This document shows, piece after piece, positions 25,616 to 42,265 of a stretch of 42,265 bases of DNA. Under the pieces are notes generated by a model. The model was given only the letters and a program-made list of their open reading frames with translations. It did no database searches and was not told the origin of the DNA. Source of the stretch: Patescibacteria group bacterium. GTDB taxonomy: Bacteria; Patescibacteriota; Patescibacteriia; Patescibacteriales; Patescibacteriaceae. Both the position numbers and the translations under genes were made by a program. How positions within the stretch are numbered: position 1 is the stretch's first letter; each line of letters begins with the position of its first letter. Location of the stretch: assembly GCA_022705845.1 (NCBI GenBank), contig JAKJDQ010000001.1, positions 1 to 42,265 on the forward strand, given 5' to 3'.

Positions 25616-27754
25616 TTATTGAATAGCCTTGCTATGCGGGGTCTTTTCTAAAAGACACCAAACATCATCGCAAGTTTTAACGGTATTAAAACCAGCCGCA
25701 GAGTAAAAAGCTGTCTGCTGGTCAAAAAATTCTTGAGTAACACCCGCTCGAAAAAGAAGTACCAATGAACAACTTTGTGGGTCATCCCCCAATCTTTTTC
25801 TCAAATACCACTCTACTATACCATTATAGCCTAGACCAAATTGATTATCACCCAGACAAAGCTGACCATCATCAATGGTTGGTGCTAATTCTTTTAACAG
25901 TCTAATATCTCGTTCTCCTAAAATGAGAAATTGGTTACAAAAAAAGCTTAAATTTTGCCAGGAAAGATAGGCACCTACTATAATAACTACCCCGGCCACT
26001 ACAAGGCCAAAAGGGCGTATAAGTTGATACAACCGATAAAGTAAATAGGCAGAAAAAATTGCTACTGCCGGAGCAAAGACAATGACCCCAAAAGGATGAG
26101 TTATCCATTGATAAAAACGCCAAGCAACAACTAACGGCGCTATAAGCCAAACAAAAAGCCAGCCAAAATTTTCTGGAAGACGACGCGAAAAATAATCTAC
26201 CAAGAACCAAATAAGACCTAAACCGGCAGTTACCAAAAAAAGCCAAGTATAATTCAACACTCCTCGATCAACGACAATAGTCTTAAGCCAATTAGAGAAG
26301 GGGATACTACTATCGGTACGAATACCATAAGCACCCCTTAAATCAGTTAAAAAGCTAGGCCCTTTTAAAATATAGAAATGGAGAAGATTAAGAGCAAACA
26401 ATCCAATAAGGGCAACGGGGATAAAGATCAATAAAGACTTACGACCCGGAATCTTCCGACCAGCCCGAAAAAGTAAAATGAACACCCATAAAGCCGCGGC
26501 AAAAATATAATAAAACCAAGCAAATAAACCGCCCACGACCACTGATAGCCAAAACAAAACAAGATATAAAGGACGCCGTTTAGACTTAGCCTGAGCATAA
26601 AAAACTAGCAAAGAAAAAGAAGTTAAGGCCGTGGGAATAGTAAAGACGGTTAGTTCAAAGCTACGGCCATAATAAATCATGCCGGGCAAAAGAGCAAAAA
26701 TTAAAGTAGTTAAAAAGGTAAAAGAACGGCGACGAGAAATCTTAAATAGGGCAAAATAAAAAAGTGTCAGGCCTACAATCATGCAAAATAATAATCCTAA
26801 ACGGGTCGTTACTTCACTTACTCCAAAAATGGCATAAAAAACTGTGGTCGGCAAAAGAAAAAACTGGGGATGATGAGTGTAGGGTAGCCCAACAGCCCCC
26901 CACCGGTCAAAAAACCCAAACTTCAAATTAAACCAGCCATAACGATTAAGATTAATGGCCGCCACACCATTAGCACCTGCTACATCATCGGCCACATGAA
27001 TAAAAGGTGTATCAATTTTATAAAAAGATAGCAAAATATAAATTAATAAAACAACGACTAGTCCTCCAATGGTCAGCCAGTCTGGACCTTTATCTGCTAA
27101 ACGGCCACGTAATTGAAATAAAAATTTCAAATTCATCCAGCCATGTTTCCAGGGAACAAGCTTAGAGTTACCAGTACGGGCAGCATAGGGAATTGGTTTT
27201 TCAGCAAAAGCAATATCCTTATTTTTAGCAGCTAAAATTTTAATCTCTTCCGAAAAAGGCATATTATTATGTTGCGGGCTTATTTTGTCTAAAACAGAGC
27301 GTCGAAAAACCCACATCCCTGATTGAGAATCTTTCAACTTTAAACCACAGATAACTCGCACAGCGAGATTAAAACACCAATTGCCAAAACGTCTAATAAA
27401 AGGCATGGCCGTTTTATCTTGAAGGGGGAAACGAGCCGCAGAAATAAAATCTAACTTTTCTTGCTCCAAAGCGCTCACTAAATCCGGTATGGCTTCAACC
27501 GGATACTGACCATCACCATCAAGAACTACTAAAATATCTCCTTGCGCTTTCTTAAGCCCATGTTTTATGGCCGCACCATAACCTTGAGTAGTTTCCTGAT
27601 AAACCTTCGCTCCAAACTGACGGGCAATTTTAGCGGTATCATCTGTAGAATTATTATCTATAACTATGGCCTCAACATTGTCGGGTAGCCTTTTTAAAAC
27701 CTTGCCAATGGAATCAGCTTCATTATAACAAGGGATAATGACAGAAATTTTCAT
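25616..27754 (-). CDS. Bifunctional-looking glycosyltransferase: N-terminal GT2 (polyprenyl-phosphate glycosyl synthase-like) fused to a C-terminal polytopic GT-C (GT39/ArnT-like) domain
   Basis: The N-terminal ~230 aa carry ISVIIPCYNE...VIDNNSTD...VLDGDGQYP (GT-A fold, DxD). About 480 aa with at least 10 predicted TM helices rich in aromatic residues follow, resembling PMT/ArnT-type transferases. Confidence 0.7.
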   Translation of the reverse strand: MKISVIIPCYNEADSIGKVLKRLPDNVEAIVIDNNSTDDTAKIARQFGAKVYQETTQGYGAAIKHGLKKAQGDILVVLDGDGQYPVEAIPDLVSALEQEKLDFISAARFPLQDKTAMPFIRRFGNWCFNLAVRVICGLKLKDSQSGMWVFRRSVLDKISPQHNNMPFSEEIKILAAKNKDIAFAEKPIPYAARTGNSKLVPWKHGWMNLKFLFQLRGRLADKGPDWLTIGGLVVVLLIYILLSFYKIDTPFIHVADDVAGANGVAAINLNRYGWFNLKFGFFDRWGAVGLPYTHHPQFFLLPTTVFYAIFGVSEVTTRLGLLFCMIVGLTLFYFALFKISRRRSFTFLTTLIFALLPGMIYYGRSFELTVFTIPTALTSFSLLVFYAQAKSKRRPLYLVLFWLSVVVGGLFAWFYYIFAAALWVFILLFRAGRKIPGRKSLLIFIPVALIGLFALNLLHFYILKGPSFLTDLRGAYGIRTDSSIPFSNWLKTIVVDRGVLNYTWLFLVTAGLGLIWFLVDYFSRRLPENFGWLFVWLIAPLVVAWRFYQWITHPFGVIVFAPAVAIFSAYLLYRLYQLIRPFGLVVAGVVIIVGAYLSWQNLSFFCNQFLILGERDIRLLKELAPTIDDGQLCLGDNQFGLGYNGIVEWYLRKRLGDDPQSCSLVLLFRAGVTQEFFDQQTAFYSAAGFNTVKTCDDVWCLLEKTPHSKAIQ

Positions 27755-35871: not shown

Positions 35872-36033
35872 TTATAATAATGAAATTAGCGGTGTATTTT
35901 GGGCGAAATCCGAACTTTTTTGACGAAAATTCAGATTGCGACTTTTAATTGCCACCCTGTCTGCCTTCGGTGGACAACAGGCGGGTAAAAATTCATTGGT
36001 GGGGACGACACTCAGCCTCCATTCTTTTTGCTT
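35872..36033. other. GC-rich, apparently structured non-coding block (candidate ncRNA or leader of unknown family)
   Basis: No credible ORF. Hand count for 35941-36080 gives 68 G+C in 140 nt (about 49%), against about 27% in a 60-nt sample of the adjacent res gene. An imperfect stem tgtctgc/gtggaca closes on a cttcg loop (35958-35976), and there are several alternative CCACC/GGTGG pairings. Confidence 0.3.
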
Positions 36034-36080
36034 GCTTGTTCCTTGGCTTTGCCAAAAACTTTTCAGAAGGCGACGGGCTA
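36034..36080. repeat. Left arm of a 47-nt imperfect inverted repeat bracketing the R-M cassette
   Basis: The reverse complement of 36034-36080 is tagcccgtcgccttctgaaaagtttttggcaaagccaaggaacaagc. It matches 41812-41858 at 42/47 positions, with the first 21 identical. The inner end lies 28 nt from the res stop. Confidence 0.85.
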
Positions 36081-36108
36081 CAAAATGAAAATGAGAGAAA
36101 TTCATATT

Positions 36109-38712
36109 TTAAGAAAGTATTTTATTTTCTAAAGCTTCCTCAAATTCCTTTTTTAATTTCTCGTTATAAAAAGGCAAACCTATAAGTTTAAAATGTTTGT
36201 TTTCTAACTTCAAATCTGTCTCTGCCTTGTTTTCTAATGTAAGCAAAAAATCTTGCTTCCAACCTTCTTTAGAATTTTCAAATCTCCCCTGTTTATCTTT
36301 AAACTGATCGCCCTTAGGTTCAATAAAAATCTGGTAAATATTAACAACTTTATTCCTTTTTTTGAAAATCATTATGAAGTCCGGCTCAAAAGGTCTTCCC
36401 TCATCAAAATCAAATACCTGAAAAAATTTTTCATTGCGGAGTAAGGCTATATCCGAATATTTTTGTCTTAACTTTTCTATAAATCCATCAATAAAACTGA
36501 TAAATTTCTGTTCTTCGTCTGTGCCATAAAATTCAGTCTGGGCATACCAATCTTTTTTAGCTAAATTAACATCTTCCAATTCTTTATTTTGAACTTCATC
36601 AATATCTATTTTGATTTTTTTATCTTTAAAAACCTGCCTCAACATTCTGGCTTTAAATAGGCGGGTTCCCACAAATTCTGAGGTGTTAACCTTCGCTTTT
36701 TCTGATATATTTTTCAACACAAACAAAGCCATATCCAATTTCGCAATTGGCATTAGTTGGTTTAATTTGTCCTTTGGGCCTGAAATTTCTATCTCGACTC
36801 CACCCAAATAACGAGAAGAGGAAATGAATTCTCTAACTGATTTAATGTGTGGAAAATATCTTTTTAATGTTTCAAATTTATAGAACTCAAATTTATCTAA
36901 TGCGCCTCTAACTATATTCTCTCCAAAATCAGAAAGTTTATATTTTATTTTACTTTGCTCCACATCTTTTACGGATTTTGATTCCCCTTTTTCCTCAAAA
37001 ACAACATCTTCTCTAAGTTCACCGGTTCTCAGTTTATATGAGTAAGTGCGCTCAATTCTTGCATCATCTAAACTAAGAATCTCTGTCCTTGGGTTCGGCA
37101 CCCTATCATTTATGAAAACTACACCATTTTTCCAAAAGTCAGTCTTTTTAAAAGAATCCTTAATGAATAGGTCTTTTTGAACATATTTTTCTGGTATAAT
37201 TCCCATTTCTGTGAGAGTGCTTTTTATTTCATCAATATATTTAGGATTGTGTGCGCTGTGATAGTGCAATGTCTCCACAATTCGCAACTCGCTCTCAGTG
37301 TCTTTATCAAACTTCCTTTTATATTTATCCTCTGTTTCATCTAATTGAAATGGAAAATATCTTGCTCCTCTGCCAATAAGTTGCGCCTCTCCCATTGTGG
37401 TATTGCCCGGCTTGTATTTGCCATGAACATATTTACCATCGCGCGTATCATACAATCGGACAATGTCAAATAAATTTAACACATCCCATCCTTCATTTAG
37501 CATATTTACTGCAAAAATTGCCCTTATTTCATTATTTTTATTCTCTAGCGAATTTAATTTTAATTGTCTTTCTTCATCAATATTTTCTGAATCTAAAAGC
37601 ATCACTTTTTCTTTTGAGAAATCTTCTTGCAACTCCTTAATTAAATTTTCAAAAGCTATATTCTCTTTTTTAAAATAATCAAACGCTTTTTCTAAATCCA
37701 TTCCTTTTGCGCGCGAAGATATTTCTTGAATATCTTGTGTTTTTAAATGTTTAATTTTTGCCAAAAACCCTTCATAATTTTCTTTTGATTCTTTTATGCT
37801 TTTTGACTTAAAAAGAATAACTGGCTTTAAATGTAATTTATATTTTTCTGCTATCTTCCGGCGATATTGGCTTAAAATGACTGCTTGTAATGCTCTATCT
37901 AATGGTTCTAAATCTGCTTGTAAAACCTCTATCTCTTTTGAATATTTATCTAATCTAAATTGCCTTAAGTCATACTGAAAAATGATCTTCTCTTCATATT
38001 TTTCTCTAATATTTTGATTACTCAAATCAATGGTAGCGGTAAATTCCAATAAAATATTTTTAGTATTACTATTTAATATTTTTTGAACTGTATATTCCCA
38101 ACTTTTTTCTAATTCAAGCTCTTGCCTGCCTTGTTTTGTAATTGTTTGTAAATGGTGCGCCTCATCAGAAATTAAAACAATTTCTTTGTCAGCAAAATCT
38201 TCATAGGTCAAAGCGTCTTCTTTTGGAAAATTTAAACGAATATGCAATCCTTGAATTGTTGTAAAAAGGATATTTATATCATCTGGACTGGCTGTTTCAA
38301 AATTTTGAACTTCTTTTACAAAAACTTCTTTTCCGCCAAATTTAATTTTTGGCGCAAAAAGATATTTTTCAGATAAAGTATTTAAGAAATTGTCTTTTGT
38401 TTTCTCAATAATATTTACACTATTCACAAAAAAGATAAAATTGCGATAGCCTTGCTTGTAAAGCTGTAAAATGTTGGCAGCCATAATCAATGTTTTACCG
38501 CTTCCGGTCGCCATATGAAATAGTAAATGTGCCGGATAAACTCGTTTTTGATAATCTTTAAAATAAAAATCAAAACGGCCAAGAGCTTCCTTTTGATATT
38601 CCCGCAACTCAAGTTTTGGATTCAAATTTTGAGCAACTTCATCGTCAATCCGTGAAGTAAAAAAATTCTGCCCAAAAGAGTCTTTTATTGAATTAAAAGC
38701 TTCGTAAAGCAT
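36109..38712 (-). CDS. res: Type III restriction enzyme Res subunit (SF2 helicase + C-terminal PD-(D/E)xK nuclease)
   Basis: 867 aa with ELREYQ.EA, motif I HMATGSGKT, motif II LISDEAHH, motif III EFTAT and motif VI QLIGRGARY. The C-terminal nuclease motif is FEPDFIMIF...IFIEPKG. Confidence 0.85.
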   Translation of the reverse strand: MLYEAFNSIKDSFGQNFFTSRIDDEVAQNLNPKLELREYQKEALGRFDFYFKDYQKRVYPAHLLFHMATGSGKTLIMAANILQLYKQGYRNFIFFVNSVNIIEKTKDNFLNTLSEKYLFAPKIKFGGKEVFVKEVQNFETASPDDINILFTTIQGLHIRLNFPKEDALTYEDFADKEIVLISDEAHHLQTITKQGRQELELEKSWEYTVQKILNSNTKNILLEFTATIDLSNQNIREKYEEKIIFQYDLRQFRLDKYSKEIEVLQADLEPLDRALQAVILSQYRRKIAEKYKLHLKPVILFKSKSIKESKENYEGFLAKIKHLKTQDIQEISSRAKGMDLEKAFDYFKKENIAFENLIKELQEDFSKEKVMLLDSENIDEERQLKLNSLENKNNEIRAIFAVNMLNEGWDVLNLFDIVRLYDTRDGKYVHGKYKPGNTTMGEAQLIGRGARYFPFQLDETEDKYKRKFDKDTESELRIVETLHYHSAHNPKYIDEIKSTLTEMGIIPEKYVQKDLFIKDSFKKTDFWKNGVVFINDRVPNPRTEILSLDDARIERTYSYKLRTGELREDVVFEEKGESKSVKDVEQSKIKYKLSDFGENIVRGALDKFEFYKFETLKRYFPHIKSVREFISSSRYLGGVEIEISGPKDKLNQLMPIAKLDMALFVLKNISEKAKVNTSEFVGTRLFKARMLRQVFKDKKIKIDIDEVQNKELEDVNLAKKDWYAQTEFYGTDEEQKFISFIDGFIEKLRQKYSDIALLRNEKFFQVFDFDEGRPFEPDFIMIFKKRNKVVNIYQIFIEPKGDQFKDKQGRFENSKEGWKQDFLLTLENKAETDLKLENKHFKLIGLPFYNEKLKKEFEEALENKILS

Positions 38713-38714
38713 AG

Positions 38715-39470
38715 TTAAACTATCTCCTCCACTACGTCCTCAATTAGTTTCAAATATTTATTTAAATAGAAATAGTCCGGCTCACTTTTTGCAGCTCTAG
38801 TTAAAATTTCAAATTCAGGATTTTCTTTATTATTTCGGTCAAAAAGTATCAATCCAACGCCGAATTTAAGACATAACGATTCAATTCTTTTAATATCGGT
38901 TCCGCGAGCATCTTTTGGAATTACCAAATATACCTTATGACTAAAAAGTTTATAAGAACAAACTTGTCCAAATGCAGTAATAAGTTGATTTATGTCGGTT
39001 TTTATTTCGGCGCTAATGACTTCAATTGGCGGCTGAATATGGCCAATTCCCAAAATTCTATAAGTTCCAATAACATCTGGCGTGCCCCACCTATCTTGAA
39101 ATCTATTGCCGCCCAACGCTACTGCTTTTGTGCATTCTTCTAAATCATTTATTAAATAGTCTGCGAATAATTTATAAAAATCTTCTTCTTTAATTTTCGT
39201 TTCTTCTTCATGTTCGATTGCTCCAAATTCCTTCTCTTTCAAATATTTCCGTAAAATATATAATCCTTTTTCTGGTCTTATTACGTCTTTAACCTCTCCT
39301 TTATCAATTTTTTGCTTAAATTCCCAAATAGTTCCGTGAATCGTATTTATTTTTGTATCCGGCAATAATTCACTTATGCTCCTCATTAAATCAGCATAAC
39401 GAATTCCTTTCGGTGAATTCTCTAAAATTTCCCTCGCAGTTTTAATTATTTGTTCTCGTTGTGTGGTCAT
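38715..39470 (-). CDS. Uncharacterised protein: N-terminal winged-helix (HARE-HTH/Mrr_N-like) + C-terminal PD-(D/E)xK nuclease-fold domain
   Basis: 251 aa. Residues ~5-75 have a wHTH-like pattern (IIKTAREILENSPKGIRYADLMRSISELLP......HGTIW.........V.R.EKGLYILRKY). The C-terminal half has E111/E112, GTP-D132-VIG, ISA-E155-I-K157 and Q169..Y173. Packed 12 nt after mod and 2 nt before res. Confidence 0.6.
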   Translation of the reverse strand: MTTQREQIIKTAREILENSPKGIRYADLMRSISELLPDTKINTIHGTIWEFKQKIDKGEVKDVIRPEKGLYILRKYLKEKEFGAIEHEEETKIKEEDFYKLFADYLINDLEECTKAVALGGNRFQDRWGTPDVIGTYRILGIGHIQPPIEVISAEIKTDINQLITAFGQVCSYKLFSHKVYLVIPKDARGTDIKRIESLCLKFGVGLILFDRNNKENPEFEILTRAAKSEPDYFYLNKYLKLIEDVVEEIV

Positions 39471-39482
39471 AAATTCTAAAAA

Positions 39483-41495
39483 TTAATTTCCATAAAACTC
39501 TCTATTTATTTTTTTATCTTCTTCATCAACTCCATATTCCTCGTCGTCAATTTCACTATAATTGACATAAAGATGGTTTTTGTCTAAACATTCCAGCAAG
39601 AATCTTCTTTGGTTTTCAATAGATAACTCTTCAAAATCTTTGGCGTTTTCATCAATGGCTTTTATATCAACTTTATAGCTTAAAAATACCTTTTCTTTCA
39701 TTATTTTCCATAATTGTTTCAATTCTTCTTTTGTTTTTGCTTTTTGAATTTTTTCAACAAAATTCTCATTCCATTTCGCAAGCTCTAAGTAAACAAAATC
39801 ACCCCCACCTTTCCAACCGACTTGTTTTGAAATGCCAGTTTGATCGCCATTAATAACATTGTTTAATCTAACTACCGCACTATTTTCTCCATAATCAAGT
39901 TGTTCTACTCCTATATACTGCCTCCCCATTTTATGAGCAACAGCACAAGTTGTGCCGGTACCCATAAAGAAATCTAAAACTAAATCACCTTCTTTAGTAA
40001 CTAAATCCAATACTATTCGAAGTAATTCTTCCGGTTTTTTCCCGTATTTCAGCGTTACACCACCCTCGTTAGCAATTCCCTGCCACAAATCTTTTGAAAT
40101 AAGATTGGTTAGTTGTTCTAGTTTAAATATCATTTTCTTTCTTCCTTGCTCTTTTATGACGGCATTTTCTCTTAAAAACAAAATACCTTCTTTTTTATAA
40201 ACATAATATTTCATCTTTTGCCCTTTATACTTACCTTTAGTTGGGGTATAATAATACGAGAACAAATCATTATCCGGTATCAATTCCTTTATTTTTTGTT
40301 CAATTCCGCCAGACAAAGTAGCAGTCCTAAATATTTTTTCAAAATTTTGAACATAAAATTCACTTACATTTTTGATTTCTAGAAAGTTTATTTTGCGAAT
40401 TACGTAGTCTTTCATTCTTCTGATCTCTATTTCCCCATTTTGCGTTTCTAATTTGCCAATTTTGTCTCCTTCGACACCTTCCGATTCAAAAAGCAAATTA
40501 TAACTTTCTATGGTCTTAGACTTTTCATCTACCATCTCTTTTTCTACTAAATTATTTATAGCTTCTATATCTTTTTTCCTTCCATAAACTAAAATATTTT
40601 CTTTAACATCGAAAATTAATCCGCCAGTTGCTACACCGGAAGGTGCTTTTATTTTTATTGCAATACTTGATATGAAATTTTCACGTCCAAATACTTCATC
40701 CATCAAAACCTTCAAATAAGCATGTTCCCGGTCGTCACATTGTACAAAAATAACCCCATCATTTTTTAATAAATTTTTAGCTACTTCTAACCTATTTTTC
40801 ATAAAAGTAAGCCAAGTAGAATGATTGAATGCATCATTATATTTAAAATCATCATTTCCGGTATTATACGGTGGATCAATGTAAATCAGTTTTACTTTTC
40901 CGGCAAAGCGTTTTTTAAGAGAGTGGATAGCTAAAAGATTATTACCTTTGATAATAAGATTATCTTTGATATCTCCGTTTTCGTCAGTTTTGAAATTATC
41001 TAATTTATGTTCACCATTTTTATCAATTCTTTTGGCGTTGGTAAAAACTTTGGGGTCAAGTAAACGGCTAATCTCATCCGGAGCCAATATTTCATTCCAG
41101 AAAATTTCATCTCGTTTTTGCTCTTCTTTTGTCATTCCACCCTCAAGAATACAATCTTTATAAGGCCAAGAAAGCACAACTTCTTTCTTCTCACTAATAA
41201 ATTCACCTTTTTCATCAACGAGTCCAATTTTATTTTTAAAAGTAGTATAACTATCTGGTAAAAATTGTTTATTGGAAACAAACTTAATAAACTTATCCTT
41301 GTCAAAAATTGTAGCTTTTCCAATTTGCTTAAAAAATACCGCTTTCATCTGCTCGTCTGATAAAAGACTCTCAATCATGTCCTTATCTAGTTTTATCGCT
41401 AACTCAATAACTTTATTCTTTAAAAGTTCGCCCTCGCTCACAAGGCGTTCATCTTTTTGAAGTAGATTTTTTAAATTGTCCAATATGCTTTCCAT
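39483..41495 (-). CDS. mod: Type III (beta-class) DNA methyltransferase Mod subunit, N6-adenine/N4-cytosine type
   Basis: 670 aa. Motif IV LIYIDPPYNTGND precedes motif I FFMGTGTTCAVAHKMGRQYIGVE (beta-class order), with a long variable (TRD) region between them and an N-terminal region typical of Type III Mod. Confidence 0.9.
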   Translation of the reverse strand: MESILDNLKNLLQKDERLVSEGELLKNKVIELAIKLDKDMIESLLSDEQMKAVFFKQIGKATIFDKDKFIKFVSNKQFLPDSYTTFKNKIGLVDEKGEFISEKKEVVLSWPYKDCILEGGMTKEEQKRDEIFWNEILAPDEISRLLDPKVFTNAKRIDKNGEHKLDNFKTDENGDIKDNLIIKGNNLLAIHSLKKRFAGKVKLIYIDPPYNTGNDDFKYNDAFNHSTWLTFMKNRLEVAKNLLKNDGVIFVQCDDREHAYLKVLMDEVFGRENFISSIAIKIKAPSGVATGGLIFDVKENILVYGRKKDIEAINNLVEKEMVDEKSKTIESYNLLFESEGVEGDKIGKLETQNGEIEIRRMKDYVIRKINFLEIKNVSEFYVQNFEKIFRTATLSGGIEQKIKELIPDNDLFSYYYTPTKGKYKGQKMKYYVYKKEGILFLRENAVIKEQGRKKMIFKLEQLTNLISKDLWQGIANEGGVTLKYGKKPEELLRIVLDLVTKEGDLVLDFFMGTGTTCAVAHKMGRQYIGVEQLDYGENSAVVRLNNVINGDQTGISKQVGWKGGGDFVYLELAKWNENFVEKIQKAKTKEELKQLWKIMKEKVFLSYKVDIKAIDENAKDFEELSIENQRRFLLECLDKNHLYVNYSEIDDEEYGVDEEDKKINREFYGN

Positions 41496-41499
41496 AGTT

Positions 41500-41709
41500 T
41501 TATTTAATTAAATCATCAATACCGACATCTAAAGCATCAGCGATTTTTTTGATGGTTTTAATTCTAGGGTCTGGTGTAGCCCCAGACTCAATTTTTGTAA
41601 TTGTATGTAAAGTAATACCAGCAAGTTTAGATAACTTGTCTTGGGAAATACCCAGTTTTGCTCGGTATCTTTTTATATTTTTTGCGATAGATGACATTTC
41701 CTTTGACAT
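41500..41709 (-). CDS. XRE-family helix-turn-helix protein (candidate controller/C-protein of the R-M operon)
   Basis: 69 aa with I+.+R...G.SQ..L....G......I..IE.G...P....I.KIA.AL.V..D.L, i.e. HTH_3. First gene of the operon, 4 nt upstream of mod. Confidence 0.85.
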   Translation of the reverse strand: MSKEMSSIAKNIKRYRAKLGISQDKLSKLAGITLHTITKIESGATPDPRIKTIKKIADALDVGIDDLIK

Positions 41710-41765
41710 TATAATATAATTTTACTATAACAACTTTACGGTCATTATTACTATTTGCTATTATT

Positions 41766-41794
41766 AGTATATGAAATCTATAGTGGAAAGTCAA
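41766..41794 (-). promoter_or_regulatory. Candidate sigma70-type promoter of the R-M operon (TTGACT-17-TATACT)
   Basis: Minus-strand -35 ttgact (41789-41794), exactly 17-nt spacer, -10 tatact (41766-41771), about 57 nt upstream of the HTH ATG (41709). An AT-rich dyad TACTA-N11-TAGTA (41749-41769) overlaps the -10. Confidence 0.5.
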
Positions 41795-41811
41795 ACAAAA
41801 TTAGTAAATAA

Positions 41812-41858
41812 TAGCCCGTCGCCTTCTGAAAAATTTTTGACAAAGCGAAAGAGCAAGC
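41812..41858. repeat. Right arm of the 47-nt imperfect inverted repeat bracketing the R-M cassette
   Basis: tagcccgtcgccttctgaaaaatttttgacaaagcgaaagagcaagc, 42/47 identical to the reverse complement of 36034-36080. The inner end lies 17 nt upstream of the -35 box. Confidence 0.85.
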
Positions 41859-41920
41859 GGACAGAAACACTGGGCGGGATTATTCAAAATCCCAGCCAAA
41901 GTCCAAAAAGTGATAATTAG

Positions 41921-42006
41921 CGGAGGAGAAGGGATTCGAACCCTTGATGCCATATAGGCATAGCGCTTTTCGAGAGCGCCCGATTCAACCACTCTCGCAC
42001 TCCTCC
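41921..42006 (-). tRNA. tRNA-Ser (anticodon CGA), class II long variable arm
   Basis: Reverse complement: acceptor ggaggag/ctcctcc, anticodon stem gcgct/agcgc with loop ct-CGA-aa, variable arm tatgcc-tata-ggcatc, T arm aaggg-ttcgaat-ccctt, discriminator G. No encoded CCA. The 3' end faces the R-M cassette. Confidence 0.9.
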
Positions 42007-42021
42007 ATTAAGCCAACTAAT

Positions 42022-42265
42022 TCATTGTTTATCTTGAATTAGTTGTTTTAATCTGTCAATCTCTGCCGTATTAAGCGACCGCACCGCCCCAATGGGCAGA
42101 CGACCCAACTTTAAAGGACCAAGTCCAGTTCTTTTTAGGTCAATCACTTCATAGCCTGCTAATTTTAGCAATAAACGAATCTGTCTCTTTTGACCTTGCT
42201 CTAAAATAATTTCTAACCGATCACTAGCCAATTGACGGCTTATTTTAGCTCTAGCTAAACTTTGG
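42022..42265 (-). CDS. Pseudouridine synthase, RsuA/RluB family (C-terminal part; 5' end beyond the window)
   Basis: The frame stays open to the window edge (...QSLARAKISRQLASDRLEIILEQGQKRQIR.LL...G..V..L.R...GPL.LG.LP.G..R.L). The E-G-x-x-RQIR motif is typical of the RsuA/RluB family. Confidence 0.7.
   Translation of the reverse strand, partial: QSLARAKISRQLASDRLEIILEQGQKRQIRLLLKLAGYEVIDLKRTGLGPLKLGRLPIGAVRSLNTAEIDRLKQLIQDKQ

Follow-up and report, generated by a model that had tools for sequence, protein, structure and literature searches.

Two kinds of mobile restriction-modification (R-M) unit from the study of Furuta, Abe & Kobayashi 2010 (NAR 38:2428; PMC2853133) bear on the present case. 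In the first, transposon-like kind, inverted repeats of 26-65 bp bracket the unit and 8-bp target duplications accompany it; the second (Fig. 3d) consists of islands in tRNA genes, where R-M genes are combined with a tyrosine integrase and flanked by long direct repeats that correspond to the 3' part of the tRNA. We analyzed a 42,265-nt stretch of a Patescibacteria group bacterium (contig JAKJDQ010000001.1, assembly GCA_022705845.1), referred to here as the window, in which two inverted arms enclose a Type III R-M operon. The arms are probably eroded copies of a ~385-nt inverted duplication that belongs to cassette elements at the 3' end of tRNA-Ser genes in Patescibacteria, and the locus would be the relic of an element integrated by a large serine recombinase (LSR). 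The window copy resembles Furuta-type units in that a complete R-M system is bracketed by imperfect inverted repeats, with no recombinase inside and with repeats that are absent from an empty site and from the rest of the 42-kb window. In contrast with those units, the arms of this family reach up to ~385 nt, show no duplication, and are linked to an LSR and tRNA-Ser. With the Fig. 3d islands the family shares R-M cargo and a site-specific recombinase beside a tRNA gene, although the recombinase is a serine enzyme here and the conspicuous repeats are inverted.

Judged by analogy, staphylococcal cassette chromosome (SCC)-type elements are the nearest functional analogue. Like the SCCmec-type elements of staphylococci and enterococci (CcrAB/CcrC), the present family combines an LSR with cargo of varying content, R-M genes among it; one conserved housekeeping gene takes the site-specific insertion at its 3' end, and recombinase-less remnants are frequent. 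The differences are that the target is tRNA-Ser and not rlmH, that the host is Patescibacteria, that the cargo is placed between inverted arms of 300-385 nt, and that the recombinase gene is inside a perfect inverted repeat of 127-146 nt. The yeast 2-micron plasmid and the Hin/Gin/Cin segments are comparable in that two unique segments are parted by a pair of long inverted repeats identical to each other, or that a segment flanked by repeats has the gene of a serine recombinase within it or next to it, and in that both orientations are seen, as among members of this family; however, the family has no replication function, its recombinase is a large integrase-type enzyme and not a small invertase with an enhancer, and inversion is hypothetical here. 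Recombinase-less cargo, inverse sites and either orientation are shared with the pdif modules of Acinetobacter and with laboratory recombinase-mediated cassette exchange using inverted att sites, but no Xer/dif-like sites were seen and site-specific exchange is hypothesised here. Unlike integron cassettes, the present cassettes have no tyrosine integrase by the arms, carry their own promoter and regulator, and are bordered by arms of 300-385 nt compared with 57-141 nt for attC. No description of this architecture in Patescibacteria was found in the searchable literature, and the cassette family is apparently widespread and undescribed.

Inverted arms in the window and in related loci

A sequence-only reading of the window had reported a 47-nt imperfect inverted repeat, identical at 42 of 47 positions, whose inner 21 nt match perfectly. 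This repeat is real and non-random. A repeat finder returned arms at 36019-36080 and 41812-41873 (62 nt, 82% complementary, spacing 5731 nt), BLAST of one flank against the other gave 47 nt at 89.4% (42/47), and the inner 21-mer TAGCCCGTCGCCTTCTGAAAA was located at exactly two sites in the window, 36060-36080 on the minus strand and 41812-41832 on the plus strand. With up to three mismatches allowed, these were still the only two sites, while none was expected from 100 shuffles. The spacing given in that reading also holds, as 28 nt separate the left arm from the end of the res open reading frame (ORF) at 36109, and the promoter-like site is 17 nt from the right arm. As it had stated, no recombinase is encoded between the arms, where the four genes are those of a small helix-turn-helix (HTH) protein, Mod, an unknown protein of 251 aa, and Res.

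What had been described as similarity decaying outward is not a gradient. Instead, the repeat consists of two full-length family arms from which different internal modules were deleted. The full arm is ~385 nt, modular and hairpin-rich, with the 21-mer as its inner end and a sharp outer end. Module A comprises the 21-mer and an AT-centred palindrome TCGCCTTCTGAAAAATTTTTGGCAAAGC, module B is a 13-bp stem-loop, module C is a G+C-rich hairpin, module D contains long AT-rich hairpins that are frequently deleted, and module E ends sharply at ...TTCGGATTTCGTCCAAAAGACACCGCCA. The distal arm of the window runs outward along the minus strand. It starts with module A (36080-36022), goes on with what is left of the B stem-loop and of the C hairpin (~36021-35950), and finishes with the 3' part of module E; arm positions 1-59, 76-101 and 318-385 are retained (36080 down to ~35874). 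This arm matches that of L014 over 131 nt at 87.8% (other loci are denoted by L numbers throughout), and its module E terminates in a tRNA-like manner with ...GTTCGGATTTCGCCCAAAATACACCGC. The promoter-side arm retains only arm positions 1-56 and 300-328, and the same decayed arm, identical to that of the window, was found in L067 and L026. Because each arm lost different internal modules, only 47-62 nt still pair in the window, and in less decayed relatives the repeat is uniform across 183-384+ nt. The possibility that orf77 (35872-36105) represents a coding arm was rejected, since it has no family match and its tblastn matches merely reflect conservation of the arm at the nucleotide level.

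An exact scan with the 21-mer identified 10 loci in GTDB genomes, mostly labelled Patescibacteria, Paceibacterota or Parcubacteria, and 42 metagenome loci, and the copies are nearly always at cassette edges. We suspect that other phylum labels among the genome loci reflect mis-binning. Approximately 0.3 chance matches to the 21-mer are expected over the 596-Gb genome collection, by arithmetic from its stated size, and L008, whose copy of the 21-mer is within an ORF rich in G+C, was regarded as such a match. A scan of viral contigs with the 21-mer gave no matches, and Rfam searches of the window and of sets of seven and six related loci returned no family matching the arms. Two copies of the 21-mer occur in eight loci, convergent in all eight as in the window and enclosing 4.6-9.4 kb. 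The arm-to-arm repeat extends over 378 nt at 95% in L050 and over 183 nt at 96% in L019, and is 100% identical up to the contig ends in L020, L021, L031 and L047, the longest being at least 384 nt. The identical flank found at both ends of L021 must be an assembly effect.

Nearly all 21-mers adjoin one of two junction types. The promoter-side junction is ...ataataa/TAGCCC (a slash marks the junction), often preceded by a 55-nt hairpin, and the distal junction is often ...CCCACCCACCGCCCTTTATTTTG/TAGCCC. Every cassette of the family starts with the conserved promoter region followed by an HTH_3 gene of 67-70 aa, 50-100% identical to that of the window, and copies at 75-100% identity lead cassettes whose cargo is different. 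What comes after the HTH gene varies, with Type III, Type IIG-like, AlwI, Tsp45I and DpnII systems represented. The cargo is Type III Mod/Res in the window, L026 and L031; a PLD-SNF2 helicase, an Eco57I-type methylase and AAA_13 (PADLOC PDC-S06) in L019-L021, L047 and L067; RadC, a methylase and Tsp45I in L050; RadC, DUF5655, an HsdR_N-methylase and an S subunit in L010, L013 and L014; RadC-Dam, Dam and AlwI in L009; and two methylases with DpnII in unit 1 of L063. In unit 2 of L063 the cargo is non-defence, consisting of GreA-like, MFS and Na/Ca-exchanger genes.

Several variants of the arm region were also observed. The optional 55-nt hairpin module (GGGAGTTCC...GTTGCCCGCGCACGGGAAGGGCGGGGCAAGGGCAAC) lies between promoter and arm in L007, L009, L010, L013, L018-L022 and others, and its G+C-rich core resembles the distal-junction motif CCCACCCACCGCCCTT in direct orientation. 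At L029:2000-2160, and also in L034, L035 and L037, a G+C-rich and apparently structured non-coding stretch precedes the 21-mer with no cassette junction; the arm of these four copies is just ~33 nt, and an LSR gene is nearby in L034 and L035. At L040:3560-3800 two cassettes stand head to head, and all that separates them is a ~165-nt palindrome in which the B stem-loop lies between module A and an inverted module A; the 55-nt hairpin module borders it on each side, a layout which suggests that cassettes can form arrays. The second arm-flanked, HTH-led cassette of L063 (L063:6593-9757; GCA_040772285.1), located by an LSR gene and tRNA-Ser(gct), has a divergent family of arms with the inner end AATTCCGTCGGCGTCC. 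Genes for DDE transposases of differing families (DDE_5, rve, rve_3/IS481-like) are within 1-2 kb of arms in L018, L025, L048, L056 and L009, and the arm region seems to attract insertion sequences.

Serine recombinase, tRNA-Ser genes and the unoccupied site

An LSR of ~520 aa, composed of Resolvase, Recombinase and Zn_ribbon_recom domains, is encoded directly beyond the outer end of the arm in ten loci (L019, where it is split, L020, L022, L024, L032, L034, L035, L041, L050, where it is degraded, and L054), and in these ten loci its transcription runs away from the arm. The same neighbourhood was found through the LSR alone in L063 (two units) and L064-L066, and in total the LSR lies just outside one arm in at least 13 related loci. 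The LSR gene is enclosed by a perfect inverted repeat of 127-146 nt, whose copies are denoted X and X'. On the 1.06-Mb contig of L063, two tandem units are arranged as cassette, arm, X', LSR, X, tRNA-Ser(tga) and as arm, cassette, arm, X', LSR, X, tRNA-Ser(gct), while in L064-L066 the arm end is followed by the LSR and then by tRNA-Ser(gga). The LSR family is very large and highly conserved, with more than 7,700 proteins at E<=1e-60, many of them 65-73% identical. Of the named families in NCBIfam, it comes closest to XisF, CcrB and CcrC, all under cutoff, and a sequence search of the PDB with the recombinase gave nothing at E<=1e-5.

The X copy at the tRNA encodes the last ~50 codons of the LSR, with the tail ...WRRGWDSNP, and runs into the tRNA 3' end, whereas the other X copy adjoins the outer end of the arm. 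A tRNA-Ser gene adjoins the LSR repeat in L019, L020, L050, L063 (twice) and L064-L066, lies next to a remnant of that repeat in L044, L067 and the window, and lies next to an arm in L007. Four tRNA-Ser isoacceptors (cga, tga, gct and gga) adjoin the LSR repeat, a remnant or an arm, a pattern that agrees with the fixed site of an integrative element, and the site is unoccupied in the related species L059. When aligned, the junctions of tRNA-Ser with X and of the arm end with X have in common ...CCGCCA/ATTATCAC..., and the outer end of the arm, ...GTTCGGATTTCGTCCAAAAGACACCGCCA, is like the T-loop and acceptor 3' strand of a tRNA. Based on this alignment, we infer that the junction of arm end and X corresponds to attP, the 3' end of tRNA-Ser to attB, and the distal arm end to attR; in the window, the end ...GTTCGGATTTCGCCCAAAATACACCGC would then be the putative attR side and the 3' end of tRNA-Ser(cga) the putative integration site (attB/attL). 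The putative core of attL, attR and attP is CCGCCA/A(T)T by alignment. Arm-end/X junctions beside the LSR 3' end are present in contigs L067-L076, where they may be assembly artefacts. We also considered the whole of module E as a degenerate tRNA-Ser, but the similarity was weak (z 0.3-2.7), and the resemblance of the 3' end alone was kept.

In the window itself, no LSR match was found over the 42 kb. A recombinase acting in trans, as the sequence-only reading had offered, is plausible in so far as relatives carry an LSR directly outside one arm. What is left of the repeat is the X remnant, 35 of 39 positions of which are identical to X of L020 (local alignment score 58, compared with a shuffle maximum of 23). 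No X remnant was found beyond the left arm (score 17, shuffle mean 16). As the LSR match is absent from 42 kb and only a 39-nt remnant of the repeat persists, the window copy is a derivative and not an autonomous member. The remnant continues directly into the promoter-side arm, where it meets the 5' part of module E. This fusion indicates a single ~1.85-kb deletion, at a GGnATTTTG microhomology, in which X was lost except for the remnant, together with the LSR gene, X' and the arm end.

We compared the window with L059, in which the MliC/DUF333 protein is 75% identical and the flanking DNA 80-89% identical. The order of genes in L059 is pseudouridine synthase, tRNA-Ser(cga), 80 nt, MliC/DUF333, HIT, small multidrug exporter, MazG and RNase J, and the syntenic site contains no arm, cassette or palindrome. 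Homology between the window and L059 ends at 41920, which is the tRNA 3' end, and restarts at ~35673. Since L059 lacks arms, a pre-existing target palindrome and a dispersed repeat are excluded at this locus. As such, the suggestion of the sequence-only reading that the arms belong to a mobile R-M cassette is borne out, the arms having arrived with the cassette, and its alternative of an insertion-site scar or palindromic target is contradicted. Relatives with both arms and no insert, the arrangement it had named as counter-evidence, are not represented by L059, which has neither arm.

A second comparison concerns the content of the slot. L067:11494-11747 is 99.2% identical to positions 41807-42060 of the window, and tRNA-Ser(cga), the X remnant and the decayed arm are all common to both, which makes L067 a contig of the window's own species and covering this very locus. 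The match stops 5 nt from the inner end of the arm, and beyond this point L067 has a PLD-SNF2/Eco57I/AAA_13 cassette of the L020 type, followed by a full arm of 384 nt and then by the X-LSR-X' unit. Because a different cassette occupies the same locus, the arms frame a slot with replaceable content. In the 97%-identical strain L061/L062, an unrelated insert adjoins MliC, and the tRNA-Ser(cga)/MliC locus is an insertion hot spot. This insert (L061:1-3292) encodes a 649-aa protein with a weak VWA_CoxE match together with a 159-aa and a partial 279-aa protein, both unknown, and its MliC side has no arm.

Weighing the explanations

In the intact layout, which relatives display, tRNA-Ser is followed by X, the LSR gene and X', then by an arm running from its outer to its inner end, the promoter, the HTH gene, the cargo, a second arm running from inner to outer end, and host DNA. 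The empty site shows that the element had both arms from the start when it inserted between the MliC/DUF333 gene and tRNA-Ser(cga). By alignment, the single ~1.85-kb deletion then took the LSR and left 39 nt of X. Each arm also shed different internal modules, and the repeat in the window would now be a non-functional relic. In the family, the arms serve as a constant frame for cargo exchange. Both this exchange and the homogenisation of the arms would proceed by arm-arm recombination, most likely of the RecA type after DNA uptake, and an action of the LSR at the arm ends in exchange is possible as a hypothesis. The identity of the repeats follows the state of the LSR in a small sample, being 99-100% where it is intact, 92-97% where it is broken, and 82-89% in the window, where it is lost. 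This trend suggests recent mobilisation or active homogenisation.

Several observations weigh against this history. L059 is a different species (80-89% nucleotide identity), which makes the exact junctions unreadable, and ~200 nt containing orf67 between the putative attR and the restart of synteny are unexplained. Integration, excision or a circular form was in no case observed, and the att sites were assigned from alignment only; the similarity of the arm end to a whole tRNA-Ser is weak (z ~2). The cassette of L063 unit 1 has no distal arm. In contigs L067-L076 the LSR 3' end lies against the arm and not against tRNA-Ser, an arrangement that fits the simple layout only as a circular form, a flipped LSR segment or a cointegrate, unless the 146-nt repeat misled the assembly. 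In L009 and L021/L046 the gene by the arm is one for tRNA-Ala or tRNA-Arg, although in L021/L046 it is on the putative attR side, where any host gene is possible. Finally, this history gives no reason why the whole att region is kept a second time in inverted form.

The arms and the repeat around the LSR gene might alternatively be substrates for flipping, by an LSR that recognizes the tRNA-like arm ends or by RecA, with the arms kept identical in the process. We regard such an invertible segment as possible but rather unlikely, and it is compatible with the relic history. The promoter side of the cassette faces the LSR in L019, L020, L032, L054 and both units of L063, and the distal side does so in L050 and L041. 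Contigs of one 100%-identical element show either cassette end by the LSR and the LSR 3' end by tRNA-Ser or by the arm, and the repeats are 99-100% identical with an intact LSR and 82-97% identical where it is broken or lost. However, repeats of 146 and 384 nt exceed assembly k-mers and most reads, so that the alternative contig joins may be artefacts, and L021 clearly has an identical flank joined to both ends. Moreover, flipping gives no obvious switch, as the cassette has its own internal promoter. Public runs were searched for excision or inversion joints by means of Logan contigs, and the candidates obtained, 36086>41807 (X5) and the opposite-strand 36015/41836 (X19), were rejected, as each consists of one short contig that related arms living in the same community would account for.

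Each arm could also be a structured RNA read away from the cassette, acting as a 3'-untranslated-region stabiliser, an insulator or a recombinase leader, and the inverted layout would then place the same RNA element at both exits of the cassette. This explanation, likewise compatible with the relic history, appears unlikely. The outward strand folds better (z -6.8 compared with -4.6) and carries G.U wobbles in the A and B stems, and three pairs of the C hairpin have double compensatory changes in 4-6 of 17 sequences. On the other hand, the window arms have no canonical terminator and no Rfam match, hairpins may also be kept at the DNA level, and an RNA function explains neither the 100% identity of arms within an element nor the tRNA-like outer end.

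A bolder extension is that the arms and the LSR form a natural cassette-exchange platform, with a tRNA-Ser-like half-site at the outer end of the arm and the 21-mer at its inner end, by which the LSR or RecA would install, swap and flip defence cassettes at tRNA-Ser genes in either orientation. On such a platform, repeat identity would be reset on each mobilisation, and RecA would draw on DNA that these competence-dependent bacteria take up. We consider this extension quite doubtful. If it is true, laboratory recombinase-mediated cassette exchange would have a counterpart in bacteria, and integrons an analogue that serves defence genes and is built on a serine recombinase.

In the case of a non-autonomous cut-and-paste transposon, the arms would be long terminal inverted repeats on which a DDE transposase encoded elsewhere acts, as was proposed for the transposon-like R-M units of Furuta et al. 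2010. The genes are indeed bracketed by inverted arms whose outer ends are defined, no transposase lies inside, DDE genes (DDE_5, rve, rve_3) are near some arms (L018, L025, L048, L009), and the literature has R-M units in which inverted repeats of 26-65 bp go with target duplications of 8 bp (PMC2853133); the window agrees with those units in that L059 has no arm and the 42 kb hold only two copies of the repeat. Nevertheless, the outer arm ends of L050, L019 and the window show no target-site duplication, and a serine recombinase would be expected to leave none. The neighbouring transposases differ in family from locus to locus, whereas the association with the LSR and tRNA-Ser is consistent, and the arms are ~10x longer than typical transposon ends. 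A transposon origin is therefore very improbable.

The explanation that a cassette landed between pre-existing repeats, either dispersed copies related to miniature inverted-repeat transposable elements (MITE), repetitive extragenic palindromic (REP) sequences or bacterial interspersed mosaic elements (BIME), as the sequence-only reading had also considered, or halves of a palindromic target, deserves hardly any credence, because the BIME-like nested-hairpin mosaics of the arms and their depth of 2-6x that of unique flanks in sludge metagenomes are set against an empty site in L059 with no arm or palindrome, only two copies in the 42-kb window, the position of nearly all copies at cassette junctions among ~60 fetched loci (~0.4 Mb) with solo copies independent of cargo not prevailing, and an excess depth that several family members in one community would explain.

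Patescibacteria have tiny genomes, depend on other cells and are uncultured, and foreign DNA is believed to enter them all the time. For such hosts, the finding points to a recurrent vehicle for acquiring and turning over defence systems, in which a conserved frame of inverted arms, promoter and small HTH gene holds varied restriction and abortive-infection modules. If the att assignment is true, the family would provide a ready set of natural recombinase and att pairs, the 21-mer and arm ends would be a signature for finding defence cargo in uncultured lineages, and the arms might serve as an indicator of island age, because repeat identity falls after loss of the recombinase. For annotation of the window, a low-G+C island by tRNA-Ser would be explained as a dead mobile element.

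Genes and signals of the window

Coordinates of the cassette and its surroundings in the window.
Feature	Coordinates	Strand	Evidence or remark
Segment variable relative to L059 and strain L061	35678..41919		6.24 kb, blastn breakpoints; exceeds the 5731-nt span between the arms
orf67, 67 aa	35655..35858	-	No family match; outside the arms, mostly inside the segment absent from the empty-site relative
Distal (res-side) arm, decayed	35874..36080	-	BLAST to full-length L021 and L050 arms; alignments
Left half of the 47-nt inverted repeat	36034..36080		Inner 21-mer at 36060-36080
Distal junction, res stop to arm, 28 nt	36081..36108	-	Degenerate version of the family motif ...CCCACCCACCGCCCTTTATTTTG/TAGCCC
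Type III restriction subunit (Res), 867 aa	36109..38712	-	Pfam ResIII; PADLOC REase_III E=2.6e-142
251-aa protein between mod and res	38715..39470	-	Nothing matched in Pfam, PADLOC or NCBIfam
Type III modification methylase (Mod), 670 aa	39483..41495	-	Pfam TypeIII_RM_meth and N6_N4_Mtase; PADLOC MTase_III E=9e-194
HTH_3 protein, 69 aa	41500..41709	-	Pfam; weak PADLOC Control_protein match
Promoter-like TTGACT-17-TATACT of the cassette operon	41766..41794	-	Surroundings conserved in L010, L013 and L050
Promoter-side arm, heavily deleted	41812..41892	+	Module A 41812-41867 joined to module E 5' fragment 41864-41892
X remnant, ~39 nt including the last tRNA bases	41885..41919	-	Read from the tRNA: CCGCTAATTATCACTTTTTGGACTTTGGCTGGGATTTTG
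tRNA-Ser(cga)	41920..42006	-	ARAGORN and Rfam; 3' end faces the right arm

Adjacent Mod and Res genes, identified by both Pfam and PADLOC, make the cassette of the window a Type III R-M system. The small HTH regulator is the first gene of the operon, as in operons controlled by a C protein, and although the PADLOC match is weak, its sequence resembles an R-M control protein. The G+C content is 30-32% within the cassette compared with 37-39% outside. The gene for the 251-aa protein is not present in the related Type III cassette of L031, based on gene maps. The cassettes of L026 and L036 differ from that of the window solely in the Mod specificity region (tblastn); the central target-recognition part of Mod is swapped between the window and L026:548-2425 and L036, and the cassettes are otherwise 100% identical. 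Replacement of the target-recognition part of Mod is the typical specificity swapping of Type III systems. The res gene of the window is also carried at 99.9% identity by L011 and L012, which are metagenome-assembled genomes of Paceibacterota/Parcubacteria, and this match places the organism.

Away from the cassette, the AT skew of positions 26001-27000 is unusually high (0.43), and no tandem repeat was found in this stretch, which is within the gene of a 712-aa glycosyltransferase (25616-27754, minus strand). Next to the cassette, the first 4 nt of the MliC/DUF333 gene are shared with orf67, which was seen in this species only.

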